Shown: one piece after another, positions 1 to 8,841 of the stretch
Layout of the letters: each line of letters begins with the position of its first letter
How positions within the stretch are numbered: the first letter of the stretch is position 1
NCBI GenBank assembly: GCA_030431375.1
Contig: JAUIIY010000007.1
Location: 4,228-68,227, forward strand
Reading direction: 5' to 3'
Origin: Alphaproteobacteria bacterium
GTDB lineage: Bacteria; Pseudomonadota; Alphaproteobacteria; Rickettsiales; JABSSG01
DNA: 64,000 bases
Position numbers and translations under genes: made by a program
The notes under the pieces: generated by a model
Databases searched by the model: none
What the model was told of the DNA's origin: nothing
Seen by the model: only the letters and a program-made list of their open reading frames with translations

Positions 1-3000
1 CAAAATTTGGCAATGACATATATACGTTAGAAAGTGAATCATTCGGAATTTGTAAACCGTGCTTCATTGCTAAAAGTTGATGCAGTCCATTATGCCAGAG
101 CATATTTTGTGAGATGGTCCCTGTATTATGCTGATGAATTTTTATTTGACTAAAGCCAGCGGATAGATGCTCTTGCACCAAATAATCTTCACCCTCTGAG
201 TACTTCACAGAGTTTAAAATTGAATCCATCCATATATTTGCATAGTCTGGCATAACAAAATCATACAAATGATTTGGTATTAATAGAGTTTTATCTCTTT
301 CTAGCTCACCTTCCATATATGCTCTATAAGAACTATTTGGAATTGTAGAAGCTTTTAATTCTCGAAGCGCTTGCTCCTTTAAAAACTCTGTATAAGCCGT
401 TTGATTGCCAATTTCAGTAACCGTAATTTTTGGTAACTCTTCAGGATTTTCTGGGGCCTCAACCTGCTTGTAATAATATATATCATCCTTTACCTCTGTA
501 TCACTGAGAATTCTATTTGCAACTGTAGCTTGATGATAAAGTATATGCTTTAAATGCTCAAAACCGGCAATAGGATCAACTAACTTAACTATATGCTGTA
601 TTTGATCAATTAGAATATTATCTACTTCATCCAATATCAGAACATCTTGAGTCCTTCCATATCTATAATTGTCAATTGTAGCTGTTTTTAATATATCTCC
701 AATAAAAACCAGCGGCGAACCATAAACTACATTAGCCTTATAACAACTTTTGGGCTTATCTCCGATACCACCCCTTACCGCATTAGCCATAGTAATTCCT
801 AATGAGTTAAAAAAAGGTGCTTGTTTTTCAGCTTCATTAGCTAAGGCATCCGAGCTAGTTACCACATCAACATATAAATTTGTCATAGCTCGTATGGCCG
901 CTGTCATAGCAACAATAGCGGTTTTTCCTTCACCTGTGCTAACTTGTATTAATCGGCCACTTTCAGATTTTAAAAGTGCTAATATGGAGATTAACTGCAC
1001 GTCACGGAGGTAATATTCGCCCTCAAATACAGTTTTATGCATAGCTTCAGAAGCTACAGCTAAAATCTTAGGAAGGGTTTCATTATTCAGTTCGTGAACA
1101 GACTCTTTGAAATTTTTATACCACGCATCTTCATATAGTGATTTAAGTTCACTAGCATATGTATGATGCTCAGATGACGAGCGCTCTTTATCTGAGAGAA
1201 GTTCAAAAATTTTGTTAAATGCTATAGAATGCTCAAGTTCAGAAAGGTTTAAAAAATTTATATCCTCTGATTCACTAGGTATTATATCTTTTAAAGTTGT
1301 TTGAACATAACGACCTGACTCTTTGTCGATATATCTAATATATATCTCATCAAACATTGGGTATACATACACAGTATTTGCATTAGTATTCCTTCTATCT
1401 GACGAATCAGTGATTAAAAATTCGTAACCTGCATCATCTAATTCCTTAATCATAGGCACTTCATATAGTTGCCTCTGTAGCTGGTAACTAGGGTTCTTTA
1501 CAAAAAAACTTGTCTGTTCTTCCCCATTTAATGAAGTAAATACTAAAGAATTTTGCTTTTTTGTAACCGTAATTTTGTCTGGAGTTAACCCTGGCTCATT
1601 ACCACCAGAATGCAAATTGAAATCAAGCGCATCAAAAAATTGACTTAATTTCTCCTGCTCTTTATGAGTTTCAATTATAATATGTCGTGAATCCCTTACA
1701 AATTCTTCAGCAATCTCTGGAGGATTATTTTTAGAGATTTCGGCTAAAATTTCTTCTAAATCTCTAGAAAAATACAATCTATTATCATCTGAAACAGTTT
1801 TAATTTTTTTATCCCAAAATTCTGGCTCAAATTTTGAGAAGACATCTATAACACGCAGCCCATCTCTATCTATAGTGAATGGACCAATATTATAATTTAC
1901 AACCCTTTTTAAAGCTTTATAAAAATGCTGTTCATTACCAGAATTTAAATAGGAAAAAAGTAAATTTTTTTGTGACAAAGTCCATGATTCAGAATTATAG
2001 AAATTTTTTACAGTTCTCTCAAAATCTGTAGGGGCTTTTTTTATCCAATCTGATGCATTTGCTGTTCCGTGAGCGGTATCACCCGAGCCTTCTAAACCCT
2101 TAGTTTTATAGGCTGGATCTTTTGACAAACAGTTACTACTATACCCAACCTTATTAAATAAAGAATCTAAAATTCTTTTTTGAGCATCATCATAGCTTGT
2201 ACATTTATCTTCAAGCTTATCATATATTTGCGAAGGTAATCCAGCATTCTTATCTGATAGGCGGTTACCAATAAATAATATTTTATTGCTCAATGATGAG
2301 TCATTTTTATTTATAGCATCCACATATGAAGAAATATTCTCTACAAAAATTTGAAGATTTTTCCATATATCATCTGATAATGACTGTGTGGTAATTAGCC
2401 TTTCGAAAAAAACTAAAAATGACGATATATGATCATTTTTAGCATCAAAAGATTTGCTTTGCTTTGCCAATATTTCTGATAATGCAAAAATTATTGGATT
2501 TGGGACATCATAATACAAATCTAAGATTTTATGACATATATCCATGACAAAATCAGCGTCTGGAGTATCTTTTTCTAATTCTCGTTCCAAAAGCTCGAAA
2601 ATAACTTTTGTAGTGTGATGTTTTGAAATAGGGTTCATCCCCTCTCGCAGATATTCTGTAAAAATAGCCGCTAGCTCAATTTTTGGCTTATATAGCTCAG
2701 CTCCGGCTCCAGCAAGCAATAAACTAACCAGAGCTGACTCGGCAGTTTTTTTTCCTGCAGTCACAGCTCCAAGATCTAGTAAATTCTCAAAAATAGTAAA
2801 TAATTCTGAATTATACTCAATACCTTCCAAGACACCTTTGGTAAAAGATTTGTATATGTTTGAGACAAAATGATCTGATAAAAATCTGTGCGCTACATCT
2901 TTTTCAATAAAATCCGCTATATACTGAACATGAGATGTGTCTTCAGCATGCTCAAGTGCATGTCTAACAATTAGGTTTGTTGTGTGCTCATACGGTGCGT

Positions 3001-3541
3001 AGGTATTATATTTTGAGAAATACAGTTTTTTGTACCCCTGGAGAATTCTAGGAGAATAACTTACTGTTGTTTCTATTGCTTCCAACGATGCTGAAGAGAC
3101 AATGTACTGATCATCATCTAAAACGGCTGATACGGTCAAAAAGATTGGGTGAGCTTTGGACTGCGCAAGCACCTTGTCTAACAACTCATATTTTTGCTCT
3201 TGAGCGAGCCTCCGCAATTGCTGTTTTATAACCGATGGATTATTTTGAAAATATTGATCCAATATTTTATATTGATAATTAATATCCTCAGCCTGTAAGA
3301 CATAAGTATAGTTACCATCGCTATTTTGAAAAATATTTTCGTCCTTTTGAGCCGAATCCTTGAAAAATTTATTAGGGAATTTACACTCCAAAAGCTTTTG
3401 AAAATCACACTCTAAATCATTCTTTACAAAATTGTTCCACAACTCATTATAACCAGGAGAATTATCAAGCATGCCGTTTACTGCAATACTATTGAAATAA
3501 TATTCTTCATCAAAAAATAGTGATATAAAATCTGTGTTCAT
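1..3541 (-). CDS. Giant SecA-like DEAD-motor protein (>=1180 aa, runs off the left window edge; absent from the ORF track)
   Basis: Manual translation of several segments from ATG 3541 (MNTDFISLFFDEEYY...) is open and in the same frame as the motifs near position 1. SecA motifs in order: LRDVQL, Walker A STGEGKT (920-940), VDVVTSS, LILDEVDNILID (DEVD 620-631), WHNGLHQLLAMKHG (~55-100). Confidence 0.85.
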   Translation of the reverse strand, partial: MNTDFISLFFDEEYYFNSIAVNGMLDNSPGYNELWNNFVKNDLECDFQKLLECKFPNKFFKDSAQKDENIFQNSDGNYTYVLQAEDINYQYKILDQYFQNNPSVIKQQLRRLAQEQKYELLDKVLAQSKAHPIFLTVSAVLDDDQYIVSSASLEAIETTVSYSPRILQGYKKLYFSKYNTYAPYEHTTNLIVRHALEHAEDTSHVQYIADFIEKDVAHRFLSDHFVSNIYKSFTKGVLEGIEYNSELFTIFENLLDLGAVTAGKKTAESALVSLLLAGAGAELYKPKIELAAIFTEYLREGMNPISKHHTTKVIFELLERELEKDTPDADFVMDICHKILDLYYDVPNPIIFALSEILAKQSKSFDAKNDHISSFLVFFERLITTQSLSDDIWKNLQIFVENISSYVDAINKNDSSLSNKILFIGNRLSDKNAGLPSQIYDKLEDKCTSYDDAQKRILDSLFNKVGYSSNCLSKDPAYKTKGLEGSGDTAHGTANASDWIKKAPTDFERTVKNFYNSESWTLSQKNLLFSYLNSGNEQHFYKALKRVVNYNIGPFTIDRDGLRVIDVFSKFEPEFWDKKIKTVSDDNRLYFSRDLEEILAEISKNNPPEIAEEFVRDSRHIIIETHKEQEKLSQFFDALDFNLHSGGNEPGLTPDKITVTKKQNSLVFTSLNGEEQTSFFVKNPSYQLQRQLYEVPMIKELDDAGYEFLITDSSDRRNTNANTVYVYPMFDEIYIRYIDKESGRYVQTTLKDIIPSESEDINFLNLSELEHSIAFNKIFELLSDKERSSSEHHTYASELKSLYEDAWYKNFKESVHELNNETLPKILAVASEAMHKTVFEGEYYLRDVQLISILALLKSESGRLIQVSTGEGKTAIVAMTAAIRAMTNLYVDVVTSSDALANEAEKQAPFFNSLGITMANAVRGGIGDKPKSCYKANVVYGSPLVFIGDILKTATIDNYRYGRTQDVLILDEVDNILIDQIQHIVKLVDPIAGFEHLKHILYHQATVANRILSDTEVKDDIYYYKQVEAPENPEELPKITVTEIGNQTAYTEFLKEQALRELKASTIPNSSYRAYMEGELERDKTLLIPNHLYDFVMPDYANIWMDSILNSVKYSEGEDYLVQEHLSAGFSQIKIHQHNTGTISQNMLWHNGLHQLLAMKHGLQIPNDSLSNVYMSLPNF

Positions 3542-3579
3542 TTCTAGAGATGCCTGTTTTTTTAATTAATCGTTACTAT

Positions 3580-4266
3580 TTAATAGCTATATTCTGATAC
3601 ATAATGTTGGTGACCAGATACTTCTTGTGATTTAGCATGAATAAGAAATGACGATTGGACCTCTGTGGTTTTAGTGGCATATTCATCTGGTGAAGCCTCA
3701 TACTCGGCCTCACTATTTAGCTCCGTATCCATATCGGCCCAGTTTTGTGCAATTTGGCTATCGTAATTGCCTATTAATGCCCGTAAAGCCTCAATCTGAC
3801 CTTCTATCTCCTGGCTTTTTGCTTGCTCCTTCTCATTTAGAATTTGATCGCATTTCGCAGCATTACTTGCTGGAGAACCCCTATAGCAAGAAATAAATTC
3901 TCGCTCCTTAGCGCTGATCTCAGCTTTCTTTGCCTCCAAGAAATTCAGCTGCACCGTAAAATTCATCTTCTGCGAATATAGCTCATTGAAATTCTCCTGA
4001 TAACCATCCAAGGCTAAAAATTTAATATGCTTCTGCTCAAGCTCATATTCATCGCGTATCCGACCAACAAATATATCATCAGCCTCCTTTACTGCTTTGC
4101 TCATTGCCTCTTCAACCAACGCATTCTTCTTGTCGAGAAGCTCCTGCTCATATTCCTTCCGAGGATAACGACCATGCATCTCATCTGCTTTTTCTTTACC
4201 GTATAATCTCACTGCAATTTTGTAATTTGTTTTTGCTCTTTCTATCCAACGTGAACGTGTAGTCAT
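3580..4266 (-). CDS. Hypothetical coiled-coil protein, tandem paralog 1 of 3 (228 aa)
   Basis: ORF track; AAGGAG SD upstream; near-identical to the two adjacent ORFs. Confidence 0.85.
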   Translation of the reverse strand: MTTRSRWIERAKTNYKIAVRLYGKEKADEMHGRYPRKEYEQELLDKKNALVEEAMSKAVKEADDIFVGRIRDEYELEQKHIKFLALDGYQENFNELYSQKMNFTVQLNFLEAKKAEISAKEREFISCYRGSPASNAAKCDQILNEKEQAKSQEIEGQIEALRALIGNYDSQIAQNWADMDTELNSEAEYEASPDEYATKTTEVQSSFLIHAKSQEVSGHQHYVSEYSY

Positions 4267-4291
4267 ATTAAGGCTCCTTATAATTTATATT

Positions 4292-4978
4292 CTAATAGCT
4301 ATATTCTGATACATAATGTTGATGGCCAGCTACTTTTTGTGATTTAGCATGAATGAGAAATGACGATTGGACCTCTGTGGTTTCAGTTGCATATTCATCT
4401 GGTGAGGCCTCATACTCGACTTCAATATTTAGCTCCGTATCCATATCGGCCCAGTTTTGTGCAATTTGACTGTCATAATTGCCTATTAATGCCCGTAAAG
4501 CCTCAATCTGACCTTCTATCTCCTGGCTTTTTGCTTGCTCCTTCTCATTTAGAATTTGATCGCATTTCGCAGCATTACTTGCTGGAGAACCCCTATAGCA
4601 AGAAATAAATTCTCGCTCCTTAGCGCTGATCTCAGCCTTCTTCGCCTCCAAGAAATTCAGCTGCACCGTAAAATTCATCTTCTGCGAATATAGCTCATTG
4701 AAATTCTCCTGAAAGCCTTCCAAGGCTAAAAATTTAATATGCTTCTGCTCAAGCTCATATTCATCGCGTATCCGACCAACAAATATATCATCAGCCTCCT
4801 TTACTGCACTAACCATTGCCTCTTCAACCAACGCATTTTTCTTGTCAGCAAGCTCCTGCTCATATTCCTTCCTAGGATAACGACCATGCATCTCATCTGC
4901 TTTTTCTTTACCGTATAATCTCACTGCAATTTTGTAATTTGTTTTTGCTTTTTCTATCCAACGTGGGTGTACATTCAT
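4292..4978 (-). CDS. Hypothetical coiled-coil protein, tandem paralog 2 of 3 (228 aa)
   Basis: ORF track; AAGAGG SD upstream; 15 aa differences from copy 1. Confidence 0.85.
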   Translation of the reverse strand: MNVHPRWIEKAKTNYKIAVRLYGKEKADEMHGRYPRKEYEQELADKKNALVEEAMVSAVKEADDIFVGRIRDEYELEQKHIKFLALEGFQENFNELYSQKMNFTVQLNFLEAKKAEISAKEREFISCYRGSPASNAAKCDQILNEKEQAKSQEIEGQIEALRALIGNYDSQIAQNWADMDTELNIEVEYEASPDEYATETTEVQSSFLIHAKSQKVAGHQHYVSEYSY

Positions 4979-5054
4979 GGCTAAACCTCTTATATTTTAT
5001 ATTCTAATGTTAGTAAAAAATCGTTTGATCTGAGTTTTGAGAAGTACGTCATAT

Positions 5055-5741
5055 TTAATAGCTATATTCTGATACATAATGTTGATGGCCAGCTACTTCT
5101 TGTGATTTAGCATGAATAAGAAATGACGATTGAACCTCTGTAGTTTTAGTGGCATATTCATCTGGTGAAGCCTCATACTCGACTTCAATATTTAGCTCCG
5201 TATCCATATCGGCCCAGTTTTGTGCAATTTGACTGTCATAATTGCCTATTAATGCCCGTAAAGCCTCGATCTGGCCTTCTATCTCTTGGCTTTTTGCTTG
5301 CTCCTTCTCATTGAGAATTTGATCGCATTTCGCAGCATTACTTGCTGGAGAACCCCTATAGCAAGAAATAAATTCTCGCTCCTTAGCGCTGATCTCAGCT
5401 TTCTTCGCCTCCAAGAAATTCAGCTGCACCGTGAAATTCATCTTCTGCGAATATAGCTCATTGAAATTCTCCTGAAAGCCTTCCAATGCTAAAAACTTAA
5501 TATGCTTCTGCTCAAGCTCATATTCATCTTGTATCCGACCAACAAATATATCATCAGCCTCCTTTACTGCTTTGCTCATTGCCTCTTCAACTAACGCATT
5601 CTTCTTGTCGAGAAGCTCCTGCTCATATTCCTTCCTCGGATAACGACCATGCATCTCATCTGCTTTTTCTTTGCCGTATAATTTTACTGCAAGTTTATAA
5701 TTTGTCTTGGCTTTTTCTTTTAAGCGTGAATAAGCGCTCAT
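5055..5741 (-). CDS. Hypothetical coiled-coil protein, tandem paralog 3 of 3 (228 aa)
   Basis: ORF track; AAGGAG SD upstream; 14 aa differences from each of the other copies. Confidence 0.85.
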   Translation of the reverse strand: MSAYSRLKEKAKTNYKLAVKLYGKEKADEMHGRYPRKEYEQELLDKKNALVEEAMSKAVKEADDIFVGRIQDEYELEQKHIKFLALEGFQENFNELYSQKMNFTVQLNFLEAKKAEISAKEREFISCYRGSPASNAAKCDQILNEKEQAKSQEIEGQIEALRALIGNYDSQIAQNWADMDTELNIEVEYEASPDEYATKTTEVQSSFLIHAKSQEVAGHQHYVSEYSY

Positions 5742-6005
5742 AATAATAACTCCTTATTTATAAATTATTTTCTAATTAGCTGAATAAATCAGAAGCGTTT
5801 TTATTAAGCACAAATTTGCCACAAGCAACAAAAACACATGCTGTTACTGCCCTGTAACAAAAAAGCTTTCAAAGTTCTAGAAATCAAGTTGGAGAGCATT
5901 AATTTGCCCATTTTGACGCCTCATCATTAAAAATTACTAATTTAATTTTTCCACCTAAAGGACACCCAGCCCTCGTTCTTCAGATTACTAACATATAAAA
6001 ACACT

Positions 6006-6027
6006 TTGTCAACGTATAAATTGACAA
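6006..6027. promoter_or_regulatory. Inverted repeat TTGTCAA-N8-TTGACAA, probably back-to-back sigma70 -35 elements
   Basis: Perfect TTGACA on both strands between divergent genes; -10 matches are weak. Confidence 0.4.
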
Positions 6028-6074
6028 TTAAATTATATTAGTTATTTTTTCTTGGAATTAATTAGCTATAAATT

Positions 6075-6944
6075 ATGGAAAATTACTACTGGGAAAGCAA
6101 TACAGGGCTAATTGAGCTTGAGGGGATTGATTTTGATATAGAGAAATGCAACCTCAAATATGAAGATTTGTTTATAAATATCGAAGAAGCAGCCAGCTCA
6201 ATAACCGAGAAAAACTTAACTTTTATCACCTATGATCTCGCTATATCAGAAGCAGAAAATTTTCATATTGCCCAAACAATTTTAAAGAGCTCTGATAAAG
6301 GTACAGAAACATATTTTAATTCCGCTTTGCATAACCCGGCAGAAGAAATAGATATTTTTTTAAACCGCCTCATGCCGGATGGGATGCAATCTACTAAAAT
6401 GGTGATGAAGAATCTACTGACAAATATAATTAGCGCCACCATATCTGCCTCTGGATATGAATATGCAGAAGTGGATATAAGGCTTCATTCCAAAACGACT
6501 GAAAATTTTATGGATCTCCATATTGATAAATCGCATGCAGAAATGATTTCTCAGTGTGGCAGGGATAGCGATGATAAAAATTTTGCAAAGCAAAAAGTTT
6601 TCATATTCCCTCTATATGGTGAAGCAACATACTTCTTTGATATGCCTGACGCGGTAAGAGGTGAATTTTTACAATACACTCATGAAACTAGCTCAACTTA
6701 CGGACAAGCATATTCTGAGCATCAAAGTGAAATTTTAGAGCTGTTTGAAAAAATGAATTTTCACACAGCAGAAGCAGGACAAGCCTCTATTCATTACGCC
6801 GGAACGGATGGAACGATTCACTCAAAACCTTTTTTTCATGAAAAACGCTTAGTTGTACTCGTTTACCCTAACCAAAAAGATATATTATTAAATTTAGATG
6901 CTTGTTTTGTGGAAGCTTTAAATAAAGCTGCAAAGCGAACATAA
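6075..6944 (+). CDS. Putative 2OG-Fe(II) oxygenase-fold (DUF1826-like) protein
   Basis: LHID (HxD), then YGEAT, then GTIHSKP..RLVVLV pattern. Confidence 0.5.
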   Translation: MENYYWESNTGLIELEGIDFDIEKCNLKYEDLFINIEEAASSITEKNLTFITYDLAISEAENFHIAQTILKSSDKGTETYFNSALHNPAEEIDIFLNRLMPDGMQSTKMVMKNLLTNIISATISASGYEYAEVDIRLHSKTTENFMDLHIDKSHAEMISQCGRDSDDKNFAKQKVFIFPLYGEATYFFDMPDAVRGEFLQYTHETSSTYGQAYSEHQSEILELFEKMNFHTAEAGQASIHYAGTDGTIHSKPFFHEKRLVVLVYPNQKDILLNLDACFVEALNKAAKRT

Positions 6945-6957
6945 ACACATCTTTTGA

Positions 6958-8313
6958 TCAACCACGACCTTGTCCTTGACCAGCTTTACGACCAGCTCCA
7001 GGGGATGAGGATGGTGCCGCAGGAGCGCCAGATTTTGCCGTTTCTGGGTTTGCTGTTAATCTTTCAACTATATGTGCAGGTGGACCCTCTGGGTAAATAT
7101 CTTCGTATCTTGGCGGAGGCGCTGGAGGAACTAATTTTGTCAGATCCGCTCCCGAACGATCTGCTGATATAGCAGGCTGAGAAGTCACACTAGCTGGCAC
7201 TGTAGGAGGATCAGCTTCTCTTCCATCATTTAACACTGCCGTCTCCCCTCTTCCCCTATCTCTTTCATGTTCTCTAACAGGTTGCCCTGGGGCAGGAGAA
7301 GGCGTAGGAGCAACTTTTGCAGCTTGTGGCTGTATAGCTTTGCCGCTTATCAATTCAATATTACGTTTTTCATTATATTGAAATAGACCTGCACCCGGAA
7401 TTAACGAACCAGCAAGATCTCCAAAATGCCTACCCAAGGTTTTTTTCGGATGTGCGCCTATGGAGCATAATTTATCAGCAGCAACGACTGCAGGTCCAAC
7501 CGCTACAAAACTTGCTGGAGGAGGCAGTGCACCAGCTGCAGCACCGGCTAAAGTCATTGAAATTATTCGGCCCGCTCCTCTAGCCCATCTTTTATACCAC
7601 TTTTCGTTTTTGTTTGCATTTTTGTGAGATATATTTGCAGCTATTGCACTTGCACAACCAGTAATTGCACCCACAATAGCTCCACCAATAGGTCCACCGA
7701 GGCTGTAAGCACCCCACATTACACCCGAATAAACAACTCCTACTCCACCAGTAAGTATACTCCTCCCACCTAATTTCAAAGTTGATCCAGCAACATTTTT
7801 AGCTACTCCCGTCACTCCAATTTCACTTCTGTTACCTGTAACAAAAAGTCCTTTAGATTTAGTAATAAGCCCAATATCATCTGCTGTACTAGTAGCATTA
7901 GCTAGCTCATATTGTTCTCTTTCCCGCCTCTTTCTTTCTCGCTTTTCTTTTTGTTTTGCCTCATTAGCTTCACGTTTAACAGCCCTTTCTTTTTCTTTTC
8001 TTTTTGCTTTCTCCTCTCGGGCTCTCACTTTTGCCTCTTGTCTTTCTCGCCTTTTCTTTGCCCTAGCTTCTTTATCGGCTTCCTTTTTCTTATCCGCTTC
8101 TTCTTTTTTTCTTCTCGCTGCTTCTCTTTGCTCCTCAGTTCGTGGTTTGCCAAATAAATTCATCCCCCCAAAGAAGGATTTTTTTTCTCCTTTTTTAGCT
8201 TCAACTACAGGACCTTTCTTTTCAGCCCTTTGTTCTTGTGCTTTTTCAGCTGCAGCTCTAGCTGCCTCAGTTTCAGCTTGCGCTTTTCTTAATCGATCTG
8301 CAACACTAGACAT
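6958..8313 (-). CDS. Hypothetical effector-like protein: charged coiled coil, glycine-zipper hydrophobic segments, Pro-rich tail
   Basis: 451-aa ORF; K/E/R-rich N-half, GxxxG repeats, PPPRY motif, basic Gly-rich C-terminus. Confidence 0.75.
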   Translation of the reverse strand: MSSVADRLRKAQAETEAARAAAEKAQEQRAEKKGPVVEAKKGEKKSFFGGMNLFGKPRTEEQREAARRKKEEADKKKEADKEARAKKRRERQEAKVRAREEKAKRKEKERAVKREANEAKQKEKRERKRREREQYELANATSTADDIGLITKSKGLFVTGNRSEIGVTGVAKNVAGSTLKLGGRSILTGGVGVVYSGVMWGAYSLGGPIGGAIVGAITGCASAIAANISHKNANKNEKWYKRWARGAGRIISMTLAGAAAGALPPPASFVAVGPAVVAADKLCSIGAHPKKTLGRHFGDLAGSLIPGAGLFQYNEKRNIELISGKAIQPQAAKVAPTPSPAPGQPVREHERDRGRGETAVLNDGREADPPTVPASVTSQPAISADRSGADLTKLVPPAPPPRYEDIYPEGPPAHIVERLTANPETAKSGAPAAPSSSPGAGRKAGQGQGRG

Positions 8314-8360
8314 ATAATTGCTGATAATTGGTTACCGTTTTCAAGCCTAAACAAAAAAGA

Positions 8361-8376
8361 TTAATAAAAGCTTAAC
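8361..8376 (+). promoter_or_regulatory. CtrA-binding consensus TTAA-N7-TTAAC
   Basis: TTAATAAAAGCTTAAC in the divergent intergenic region, 48 bp upstream of the 8313 start; AT-rich background lowers specificity. Confidence 0.45.
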
Positions 8377-8557
8377 ATTCTGAAAATCTACAATTTCATC
8401 AGATTCTTCTATATACAAAATTTGAATAATAAAAACACATAACTGTTCATATCATCACGCCATTGCACAATCAAAAAATTCACATTAACTTTTTCTACAA
8501 AATGTTATTTTAAAATAGATTATAATTTCATAGAATTACTATAAATGGGGTAAAATT

Positions 8558-8818
8558 ATGGATGAACAAACAAGCAAAAAACTAGGTAGGAATGCTGACC
8601 TTAAGGCTTCGGGTGGAGGATCAATGTCTGAGACACAGTCCGATATAACAGTAGAGCAAGCTAAATTTTTTGATGCAATACTTCACAAAACTCCAAAAGG
8701 ACAAAATGTCTTAGAAGAATTATCAGGAAGCAAGGTTACTTATGCTGGACAGCAAACAATTAAAAGGGCAGCACCAGGCACAAAACAGAAACAATCATCG
8801 CAAAAAGCAAAATTATAA
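8558..8818 (+). CDS. Hypothetical protein (86 aa)
   Basis: ORF with GGGG purine tract upstream, co-oriented with the ankyrin gene. Confidence 0.6.
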   Translation: MDEQTSKKLGRNADLKASGGGSMSETQSDITVEQAKFFDAILHKTPKGQNVLEELSGSKVTYAGQQTIKRAAPGTKQKQSSQKAKL

Positions 8819-8841
8819 AAAGGGGTTAACAAAAATATTTA

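Follow-up and report, generated by a model that had tools for sequence, protein, structure and literature searches.

Polymorphic toxins are usually classed according to which secretion machinery the N-terminal part engages. Described systems of this kind include CdiA, Rhs/YD, MafB and LXG-type toxins (Zhang, de Souza, Anantharaman, Iyer and Aravind 2012, PMC3482391), and the same paper mentions SecA-like domains in passing for effectors of Amoebophilus. Giant secreted toxins of actinobacteria contain a SecA-like ATPase and MFS domains that were 'predicted to facilitate their secretion' (Kaur, Iyer, Burroughs and Aravind 2021, PMC8195603). The eukaryotic association module of prophage WO encodes SecA-domain proteins that resemble sequences of invertebrates more than the SecA of bacteria (Bordenstein and Bordenstein 2016, PMC5062602), and secondary SecA_DEAD proteins have been described as short stand-alone motors beside HlyD, M50 and TolC-type genes in loci resembling the type I secretion system (Kamneva, Poudel and Ward 2015, PMC4452313). 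In this study, a stretch of 64,000 nucleotides (hereafter the window, meaning the whole stretch; bases 4228-68227 of contig JAUIIY010000007.1, here C9) from the genome of a Rickettsiales bacterium (GCA_030431375.1; 1.41 Mb, 20 contigs, 95.8% complete) was analysed, with emphasis on a giant open frame at its beginning that carries a SecA-type ATPase motor inside a much longer protein.

The frame is probably the start of a giant polymorphic-toxin-type gene of this reduced-genome bacterium, the product of which would move a toxin tail by means of a built-in motor and helices. The giant family to which the gene belongs resembles the polymorphic toxins in its conserved body, its recombining colicin E3/D, AHH and WHH tails, its downstream SUKH and Imm11 genes and its orphan cassettes. 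It differs from them in that neither an N-terminal domain linked to type V, VI or VII secretion nor filamentous or RHS repeats were found, and in having a body with a SecA-type ATPase and a three-helix module. Kinship with polymorphic toxins and the pairing of a SecA-like ATPase with transporter-like membrane helices are shared with the actinobacterial giant toxins, and a reading of these parts as a built-in export device is in line with the prediction published for that group (PMC8195603). Those toxins, compared by description only, come from another phylum, carry GT4, ART or metallopeptidase toxins and have MFS domains in place of the three-helix module. The phage WO proteins (PMC5062602) likewise belong to Rickettsiales, and animal-labelled proteins nest among the giants here too; however, the window gene lies among housekeeping genes with no recognisable prophage, the WO proteins again being compared by description only. 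A search of a phage collection returned ordinary SecA-like matches of less than 60% identity only, none of them labelled as Wolbachia phage. A second, divergent SecA-type motor is common to our genome and the loci resembling type I secretion (PMC4452313), but here the motor sits inside a protein with a length of 2589 residues or more, and HlyD-, M50- or OEP-type neighbours were not among the open reading frames (ORFs) scanned. The genome as a whole has two TolC-type genes.

SecA-like domains in symbiont effectors and giant toxins have already been mentioned (PMC3482391, PMC5062602, PMC8195603), and members of the giant family stand in public records under vague names. What is unusual here is polymorphic toxins with a motor-containing body. 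A literature search of full texts, with supplementary files outside the search, found no account for Rickettsiales of the giant architecture or of the arrangement of its toxins, immunity genes and orphan cassettes.

The open frame and its SecA-type motor

An initial annotation of the window had proposed a frame without a stop that begins with an ATG at position 3541 of the minus strand and carries four SecA motifs. From this ATG the frame runs through 1180 codons without a stop and reaches the window edge at position 2. When it was followed along C9 beyond the window, as the annotation had suggested, it was found to reach base 2 of the contig, a length of 2589 codons with zero internal stops and still without a terminal one. 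The window covers less than half of the giant gene, and the contig end truncates its 3′ part. Upstream of the ATG just eight more codons are open (2597 from stop to stop, 2589 from the ATG). The frame is not a chance one, given such a length at 35% G+C and the integrity of every SecA ATPase motif. All four motifs occur in SecA order where the annotation had placed them (RDVQL at residues 846-850, STGEGKT at 868-874, DEVDNILID at 971-979 and GLHQLLAMKHG at 1152-1162).

Searches with profile hidden Markov models, another check named in the annotation, agreed with these motifs. Pfam SecA_DEAD (cut-off 24.6) scored 88.4 bits on the window part and 95.8 bits on the extended protein (residues 809-1197), in which the SecA P-loop domain (NBD2, the second nucleotide-binding domain; cut-off 27) was also recognised, at 50.3 bits. 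The match to the PPXD family (PF01043) was weak (14-16.4 bits, under the 23.5 cut-off); an insert of the right size and in the right place is present in NBD1 and ends in GLHQ, and 6 of the 11 homologues returned by a word-indexed search carry a precomputed PF01043 match. The generic Pfam DEAD model was just exceeded (27.2-28.3 bits, cut-off 26), and the public record of a homologue from Bandiella bears the label 'DEAD/DEAH box helicase'. A nucleic-acid helicase, which would accord with both, is nevertheless extremely improbable in view of the SecA_DEAD and SecA P-loop scores, the SecA GLHQ motif that closes the NBD1 insert, a PDB sequence search in which 24 of 24 matches were SecA or SecA2, and the position of the giant motors as sister to SecA in the tree described below, which was built without helicases.

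Compared with the SecA of the same genome, TGEGKT, DEVD, TGT, GRGTD and GRSxRxGxPG, including the arginine finger, are all kept, and they are invariant in the motor alignments. Identity to this SecA amounts to 51/192 positions in NBD1, 23/103 in the insert and 51/227 in NBD2, and to 12/133 and 11/98 (9-11%) in two stretches after NBD2, where SecA has its helical scaffold and wing domains with the two-helix finger; the zinc-binding, SecB-binding tail of the genome's SecA (CPCGSGxKxKxCHG) has no counterpart in the giant protein. Judged by its motifs, the motor appears to be a catalytically intact yet very divergent SecA-type ATPase. An AlphaFold2 model of residues 795-1700 was computed from a 19-row alignment (mean predicted local distance difference test score, pLDDT, 78.4; predicted template modelling score, pTM, 0.76). 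Two alpha/beta domains are predicted, the first of which holds a beta+alpha insert, while the second leads straight into a 45-residue helix with more long helices beyond it. The predicted arrangement is the general SecA layout. The giant motor shares NBD1, an insert at the PPXD position, NBD2, the ATPase motifs and a predicted long helix after NBD2 with housekeeping SecA and SecA2; it differs from them in lacking the zinc-finger tail, in being embedded at residues ~800-1560 of a protein at least 2589 residues long and in forming a separate clade.

The annotation had regarded the protein as a non-canonical SecA-domain protein repurposed as an effector, a toxin or a dedicated translocation motor, and had named a separate canonical secA and a motor phylogeny as checks. 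A canonical secA is present on contig C18, where a 903-codon frame scores 1113.3 bits on TIGR00963 (cut-off 800), whereas the giant protein scores 151.5 bits on TIGR00963 and 144.7 bits on PRK12904 (cut-off 814) and reaches neither housekeeping cut-off. Across the NCBIfam secA and secA2 equivalogs it obtained 109-166 bits against cut-offs of 725-1493, and on the SecA2 models 109-151 bits against cut-offs of 725-1100. A maximum likelihood tree (quick search, no bootstrap) was calculated from the NBD1-to-NBD2 region with 50 rows and 568 columns, comprising 32 giant motors, 17 SecA and a single SecA2, and no chloroplast SecA, motors of the kind described by Kamneva and colleagues or helicases. 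All 32 giant motors fell on one side of a branch with a Shimodaira-Hasegawa-like approximate likelihood ratio (SH-aLRT) of 100, and the 17 SecA and one SecA2 on the other; after removal of a long-branch row (49 rows), the 31 giant motors still stood apart with an SH-aLRT of 100. The genome's canonical SecA was placed among the SecAs of its relatives. In a separate comparison it showed 51-60% identity (best segment) to 80 listed loci, mostly alphaproteobacteria-labelled and several of them Rickettsiales or Holosporales-like. A tree in which the giant's motor and the SecA of its own genome were forced into one clade was 275.7 log-likelihood units worse (approximately unbiased test, p-AU 2e-62), the group having been chosen after the tree was seen. 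On the scores, the separate clade and the canonical secA on C18, the identification of the giant motor as a housekeeping SecA or a recent copy of it is rejected. The motor groups with neither SecA nor SecA2, the latter sampled by one row, and the non-canonical, repurposed interpretation is upheld; of the effector, toxin and motor options, the relatives back the toxin.

Giant relatives and their toxin-type features

The giants have a common layout. A conserved leader and a helical region at the N-terminus precede the SecA motor, which a helical linker joins to a conserved three-helix hydrophobic module, and a variable tail forms the end. In the alignment, the module (C-module, residues ~1970-2400 of our protein) has an invariant L-E..W..T motif, a pair of hydrophobic helices separated from a third one by a GxPID loop, and a pair of invariant cysteines; a PDB profile search with it returned nothing below E 0.28. 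Residues 806-2392 are collinear with a protein of genome G024 and residues 511-2388 with one protein of G035, and residues 520-2444 and 1-432 align with P0017, a 2956-residue database protein, at 32% and 25% identity, respectively. The C-module profile matches 20 of 32 giants. Hydrophobicity was profiled in 13 giants, and in five of the six without a C-module match a strongly hydrophobic stretch lies between a few hundred and ~1800 residues past the motor; in the G037 giant, the sole such stretch lies ~1250 residues past the motor, near the C-terminus.

The family is rare and mostly confined to Rickettsiales. The word-indexed search with the whole protein gave just 11 matches, mostly through the motor, and none with residues 1560-2589; a search with the motor for related loci among collected genome contigs found no relative. 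Giant motor frames occur in 5 of 60 relatives (G010, G024, G035, G056 and, weakly, G037), and the other 55 match only through a housekeeping SecA of ~900 residues, except G026, which has no match. With the C-module as query, 19 of 400 scored genomes of the order Rickettsiales were positive, including our genome, and 11 of the 19 belong to one family of 39 genomes. A class-wide sample yielded 3 of 401, the two besides our genome being 1.6-1.7 Mb in size, and a phylum-wide sample 1 of 401, which was our genome only.

Several named organisms carry members of the family. The plasmid NZ_CP110822.1 of Ca. Bandiella woodruffii encodes the 'DEAD/DEAH box helicase' mentioned above (CDS 1-8901), which belongs to the same motor clade with 31% identity over 97% of the motor and has the C-module and a LysM-containing tail. 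A 'SecA-like domain protein' on plasmid CP113870.1 of Ca. Megaera polyxenophila falls in the same clade. Both are plasmid-borne and have different tails, and no paper discussing either record was found in the literature search. Further named members lie on plasmids of the Rickettsia endosymbiont of Culicoides and of Legionella geestiana, and a contig of G281, a genome of the same order, is 100% identical over 13,902 bases to the Ca. Bandiella woodruffii plasmid record. As Ca. Bandiella belongs to Rickettsiales, this places our genome in the same order. Extreme sizes are met on the plasmids of loci L107 and L122, with genes of 15.7 kb and 4.8 kb in Ca. Megaera polyxenophila and of 14.8 kb in the Rickettsia endosymbiont of Culicoides. 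At locus L098 (G035:C1:97000-114000), the motor lies in a frame of 1717 codons, and the hydrophobic module and LysM lie in an adjacent frame of 1230 codons that overlaps the first by a few bases, which reflects either a frameshift or a genuine two-gene form. Four of the 11 word-indexed matches are animal-labelled giants (P0005, P0008, P0010 and P0011, from Aricia agestis, Anguilla anguilla, Rotaria and Silurus), which are nested among the bacterial giants in the tree; three of them lie on contigs of 15-66 Mb, and two match the hydrophobic module weakly. They could be transfers from symbionts or contamination, and as possible transfers they are worth a look.

The toxin-type features are seen in the relatives. 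Nuclease-toxin tails were recognised by Pfam in 5 of 15 complete relatives, namely colicin E3 'Cytotoxic' (35.5 bits), Colicin_D (51.5 and 66.3 bits), AHH (54.8 bits) and WHH (50.7 bits, with Colicin-DNase at 34.3 bits); one further complete relative has a LysM-containing tail and one an ankyrin-repeat end. A small ORF on the same strand follows nearly every complete giant gene at a distance of 2-70 bases. Ten of these downstream ORFs were scanned with Pfam-type families. SUKH-1/SMI1_KNR4 was found at 70.9 bits in the ORF after the WHH tail and Imm11 at 22.1 bits, exactly at its cut-off, in the ORF after the AHH tail; DUF6980, DUF2247 and DUF7674 exceeded their cut-offs in others, two ORFs stayed under the cut-offs and three had no family. 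The ORFs downstream of the LysM tail begin with lipoprotein-type signal peptides, as judged by eye. The ends of the giants recombine, as seen between G309 and G163b, which are 85-100% identical over residues ~344-2335 and only 21-32% identical over the last 450 residues, the first 250 residues also differing. At three loci, orphan cassettes stand after the immunity gene; they match the conserved part of the adjacent giant at 88-90% identity over 313, 50 and 634 residues before they diverge. On the basis of nuclease tails, immunity-type genes, recombining ends and orphan cassettes in the relatives, the giant family has a polymorphic-toxin-type architecture.

An alternative is a host-directed effector, which would be delivered into the eukaryotic host, for example by a type IV system, insert its hydrophobic hairpin in host membranes and act on host RNA or organelles. 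The reduced Rickettsiales genome has two VirB4-type genes, ankyrin repeats are present in P0016 and in the protein of G037 and an ankyrin-repeat gene lies near our locus, all of which would suit such an effector, as would the nesting of animal-labelled homologues among bacterial giants and the SecA-type domains described for phage WO eukaryotic association module proteins (PMC5062602) and Amoebophilus effectors (PMC3482391). We nevertheless consider this explanation not very likely, although it is compatible with a polymorphic toxin rather than exclusive of it: SUKH-1 and Imm11 immunity-type genes with orphan cassettes are a signature of toxins able to kill the producer or its kin, the lipoprotein-type signal peptides after the LysM-containing tail point to a target in the bacterial envelope, and the tail domains are of colicin type.

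The gene ends and a possible delivery mechanism

The N-terminal region (residues 1-800) had been described in the annotation as novel and apparently helical, and both parts of that description stand with a restriction. The leader, which is restricted to the giant family, has the aligned motifs [LI]xL[FLI][FY]Dxx[YF][YF] at residues 6-16 and CxxPNx[YF]F at 53-59, and inspection by eye gave no apparent signal peptide. A conserved core follows at residues 520-610, in which W520, Y550, D558-R559, G561, D586-N587 and N606 are invariant or nearly so. Pfam recognises no family in the region, which is nevertheless not unique: phmmer with residues 1-800 against 1.84 billion representatives matched five proteins, four of them giants of 2312-2956 residues, and an iterated profile search of 50 other collected proteins aligned the region N-terminus to N-terminus in 12. 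The database of the latter search was small and pre-selected, and collinearity rather than E-values carries the argument. One of the four giants matched by phmmer, the RTX protein P0020, was discounted as spurious, with a match of only 29 residues. An AlphaFold2 model from a 13-row alignment (mean pLDDT 68.7, pTM 0.51) is mostly helical, with paired helices at residues 100-470 (pLDDT mostly 70-90) and further helices at 500-645, but residues ~657-750 are predicted as a small beta domain, and residues 1-100 are not confident. Neither a PDB sequence match nor a usable Atlas look-alike was obtained for the region (stored fragment P0021: TM <=0.26, model pLDDT 0.52).

At the other end, P0017 extends 537 residues past the last aligned position against 145 in our frame, which indicates that ~400 residues including the tail are missing from our gene. 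A search of contig ends found no obvious continuation, and the tails of five relatives had no tblastn match in our genome. The start of C9 has a single match, C7:471-573, to which its first 103 bases (34 codons) are identical, and the two contig starts share nothing else. The C7 frame opens exactly at the shared boundary, with a stop two codons upstream, and runs for 191 codons to the end of C7 (C7:1-573, locus L105) with no gene body upstream; a Pfam search of the C7 tail (157 extra codons) found no family. In the contigs of two public runs, C7:98-2000 is one unbranched piece with a depth of ~7.3, and C7:1-127 lies on short pieces with a depth of 31-55 (the layouts of the two runs are identical, and the runs are possibly not independent). 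The C7 arrangement is real, as indicated by its unbranched cover in both runs' contigs, and the depth of 31-55 against 7.3 marks C7:1-127 as a multi-copy element. C7:1-573 may be an orphan tail cassette with a 103-base handle, as in the relatives, or, in a different structural variant, the real continuation of the gene.

A decaying or mis-assembled gene, either a pseudogene remnant or a chimeric contig end, would account for the cut of the gene by the contig end, for the identity of the terminal 103 bases to an internal C7 stretch and for the unbranched C7 arrangement at that place. It is highly improbable, as the 2589 stop-free codons keep the catalytic motifs and the family-invariant residues, the protein is collinear with full-length relatives, and the two runs hold 95% of the words sampled from the first 4000 bases of C9. 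Several other contig ends overlap other contigs internally by 99-127 bases, for example the end of C15 with C11:488-610 inside an EF-Tu gene, and the far end of C9 and the start of C10 encode long tandem protein repeats. Such contig ends are assembly breaks at repeats.

One polypeptide of the giants holds, in order, a SecA-type ATPase with intact motifs, membrane-type helices and a toxin tail, the last as seen in relatives. The motor and the hydrophobic helices would form a built-in protein-conducting device, in which ATP use by the motor would drive the C-terminal toxin in unfolded form through a membrane, in the simplest case the inner membrane of the producer during export. The N-terminal region may serve trafficking or partner binding, and an immunity protein would shield the producer. 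Likely targets would be other bacteria in the same host cell, and host targets are also conceivable. An extension of this mechanism, in which the motor and the three-helix module constitute a self-contained, ATP-driven delivery device independent of type V, VI and VII machinery, is in our judgement unlikely. In its boldest form it would work from outside the target cell: producer and target share a host cytoplasm that contains ATP, with which the motor could push a nuclease tail into a neighbouring bacterium or organelle; the concentration of the family in small-genome intracellular lineages would be explained if the device worked from outside in ATP-bearing host cytoplasm.

Several points weigh against the polymorphic-toxin interpretation. 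Polypeptide translocation is no more than a predicted mechanism, because identity to SecA after NBD2 is just 9-11% and the PPXD match is under its cut-off. Pfam and NCBIfam searches of residues 1-800 found no family and no recognised secretion-linked domain (TPS, PAAR, LXG, WXG or signal peptide). Eight of the 15 complete relatives have a tail without a Pfam family and one ends in ankyrin repeats, and not all tails need be nucleases. Host-directed roles would also be compatible with the animal-labelled homologues and with the ankyrin repeats that some members contain. The tail of our own gene and any immunity gene are unassembled, and a toxin end would be assigned to it from its relatives only; the 157 extra codons at the start of C7 are familyless and may not belong to the giant gene.

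None of the known secretion-linked parts by which polymorphic toxins are sorted is found in the giant family, which has a translocation-type ATPase and membrane helices inside the toxin polypeptide instead. If the motor does move the toxin tail, this would be a new principle of toxin delivery. To our knowledge, obligate intracellular bacteria mostly lack type VI systems, and no type VI sheath gene was found in our genome; the family, if correctly interpreted, would offer a route into how such bacteria fight competitors in a shared host cell. It also connects the Amoebophilus effectors, the phage WO eukaryotic association module and the giant actinobacterial toxins, and corrects database labels such as 'DEAD/DEAH box helicase'.

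Neighbouring genes and feature coordinates

Three tandem 228-codon genes stand directly upstream of the giant gene on the same strand (window 3580-5741), the nearest 38 bases from its ATG. Their DNA is 94-96% identical over the first 300 bases and their proteins 93-94% identical. No homologue of the 228-residue protein was found outside its own cluster among 5.8 billion sequences (one protein among 209 candidates). A C-[WY]-[RK]-x-SP..C motif is common to these genes and to small coiled-coil-like genes upstream of giants at four other loci; Pfam gave nothing past coiled-coil noise on the small upstream proteins, and a profile of the small Cys-motif proteins found only its five seed loci among 20 loci. 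The small Cys-motif gene is a lead and no universal conserved partner. The end of contig C6 holds a copy of the 5′ region of the 228-codon gene with 80-92% similarity. A second small family (250-295 residues, 27-29% mutual identity, no Pfam family) lies upstream of the giant gene at L098, L100 and L102; it is not among the window ORFs adjoining our giant gene, although no dedicated search was made for this second family.

The upstream genes bear on an accessory export motor of the SecA2 kind, which would serve other substrates such as the three small upstream proteins. Their tandem arrangement close to the giant gene, the comparable genes at four other loci and the intact SecA ATPase motifs are what such a motor would lead one to expect, and stand-alone secondary SecA-like motors have been proposed (PMC4452313). 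We regard it as very unlikely all the same: the SecA2 cut-offs are missed by a wide range and the motor stands apart from the single SecA2 of the tree, it is fused with toxin tails and membrane helices in one polypeptide, the small gene occurs at only 5 of 20 loci, and no SecY2, Asp, HlyD or M50 gene is present among the 10 neighbouring ORFs scanned (accessory Sec genes were not searched genome-wide). The features are listed in Table 1.

Table 1. Features of the giant gene and its upstream neighbours, in window coordinates
Feature	Position	Strand	Basis or remark
5′ part (codons 1-1180) of a giant gene of at least 2589 codons, SecA-motor toxin-type (probable)	2..3541	-	continues to C9 base 2, cut by contig end
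Conserved N-terminal leader, residues 1-60	3362..3541	-	alignment; low model confidence
Helical-pair (repeat-like) region, residues ~100-470	2132..3244	-	AlphaFold2 pLDDT mostly 70-90; overlapping repeat-like profile matches
Conserved helical core of N-terminal region, residues ~500-645	1607..2044	-	alignment and AlphaFold2 model
Small predicted beta-sheet domain, residues ~657-750	1292..1573	-	model strands 657-749, pLDDT ~60-84
SecA-type NBD1, residues ~800-990	572..1144	-	Walker A STGEGKT at window 920-940, DEVD at window 620-631
Beta+alpha insert in NBD1 at SecA PPXD position, residues ~995-1160	62..559	-	ends in GLHQ (window 77-88); weak PPXD match; model
228-residue protein gene, copy 1, nearest giant gene	3580..4266	-	coiled-coil-like composition, motif CYRGSPASNAAKC
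228-residue protein gene, copy 2	4292..4978	-	93-94% protein identity to other copies
228-residue protein gene, copy 3	5055..5741	-	tandem copy

Beyond the 228-codon genes lie two familyless ORFs and the gene of an ankyrin-repeat protein, which is followed by housekeeping genes (LpxC, M32 peptidase, SURF1 and COX3). Ankyrin-repeat proteins are a typical effector type of endosymbionts. The one in the window (8842-9600, plus strand) has 252 residues, scores 100.6 bits on Ank_2 and lies ~5 kb upstream of the giant gene.

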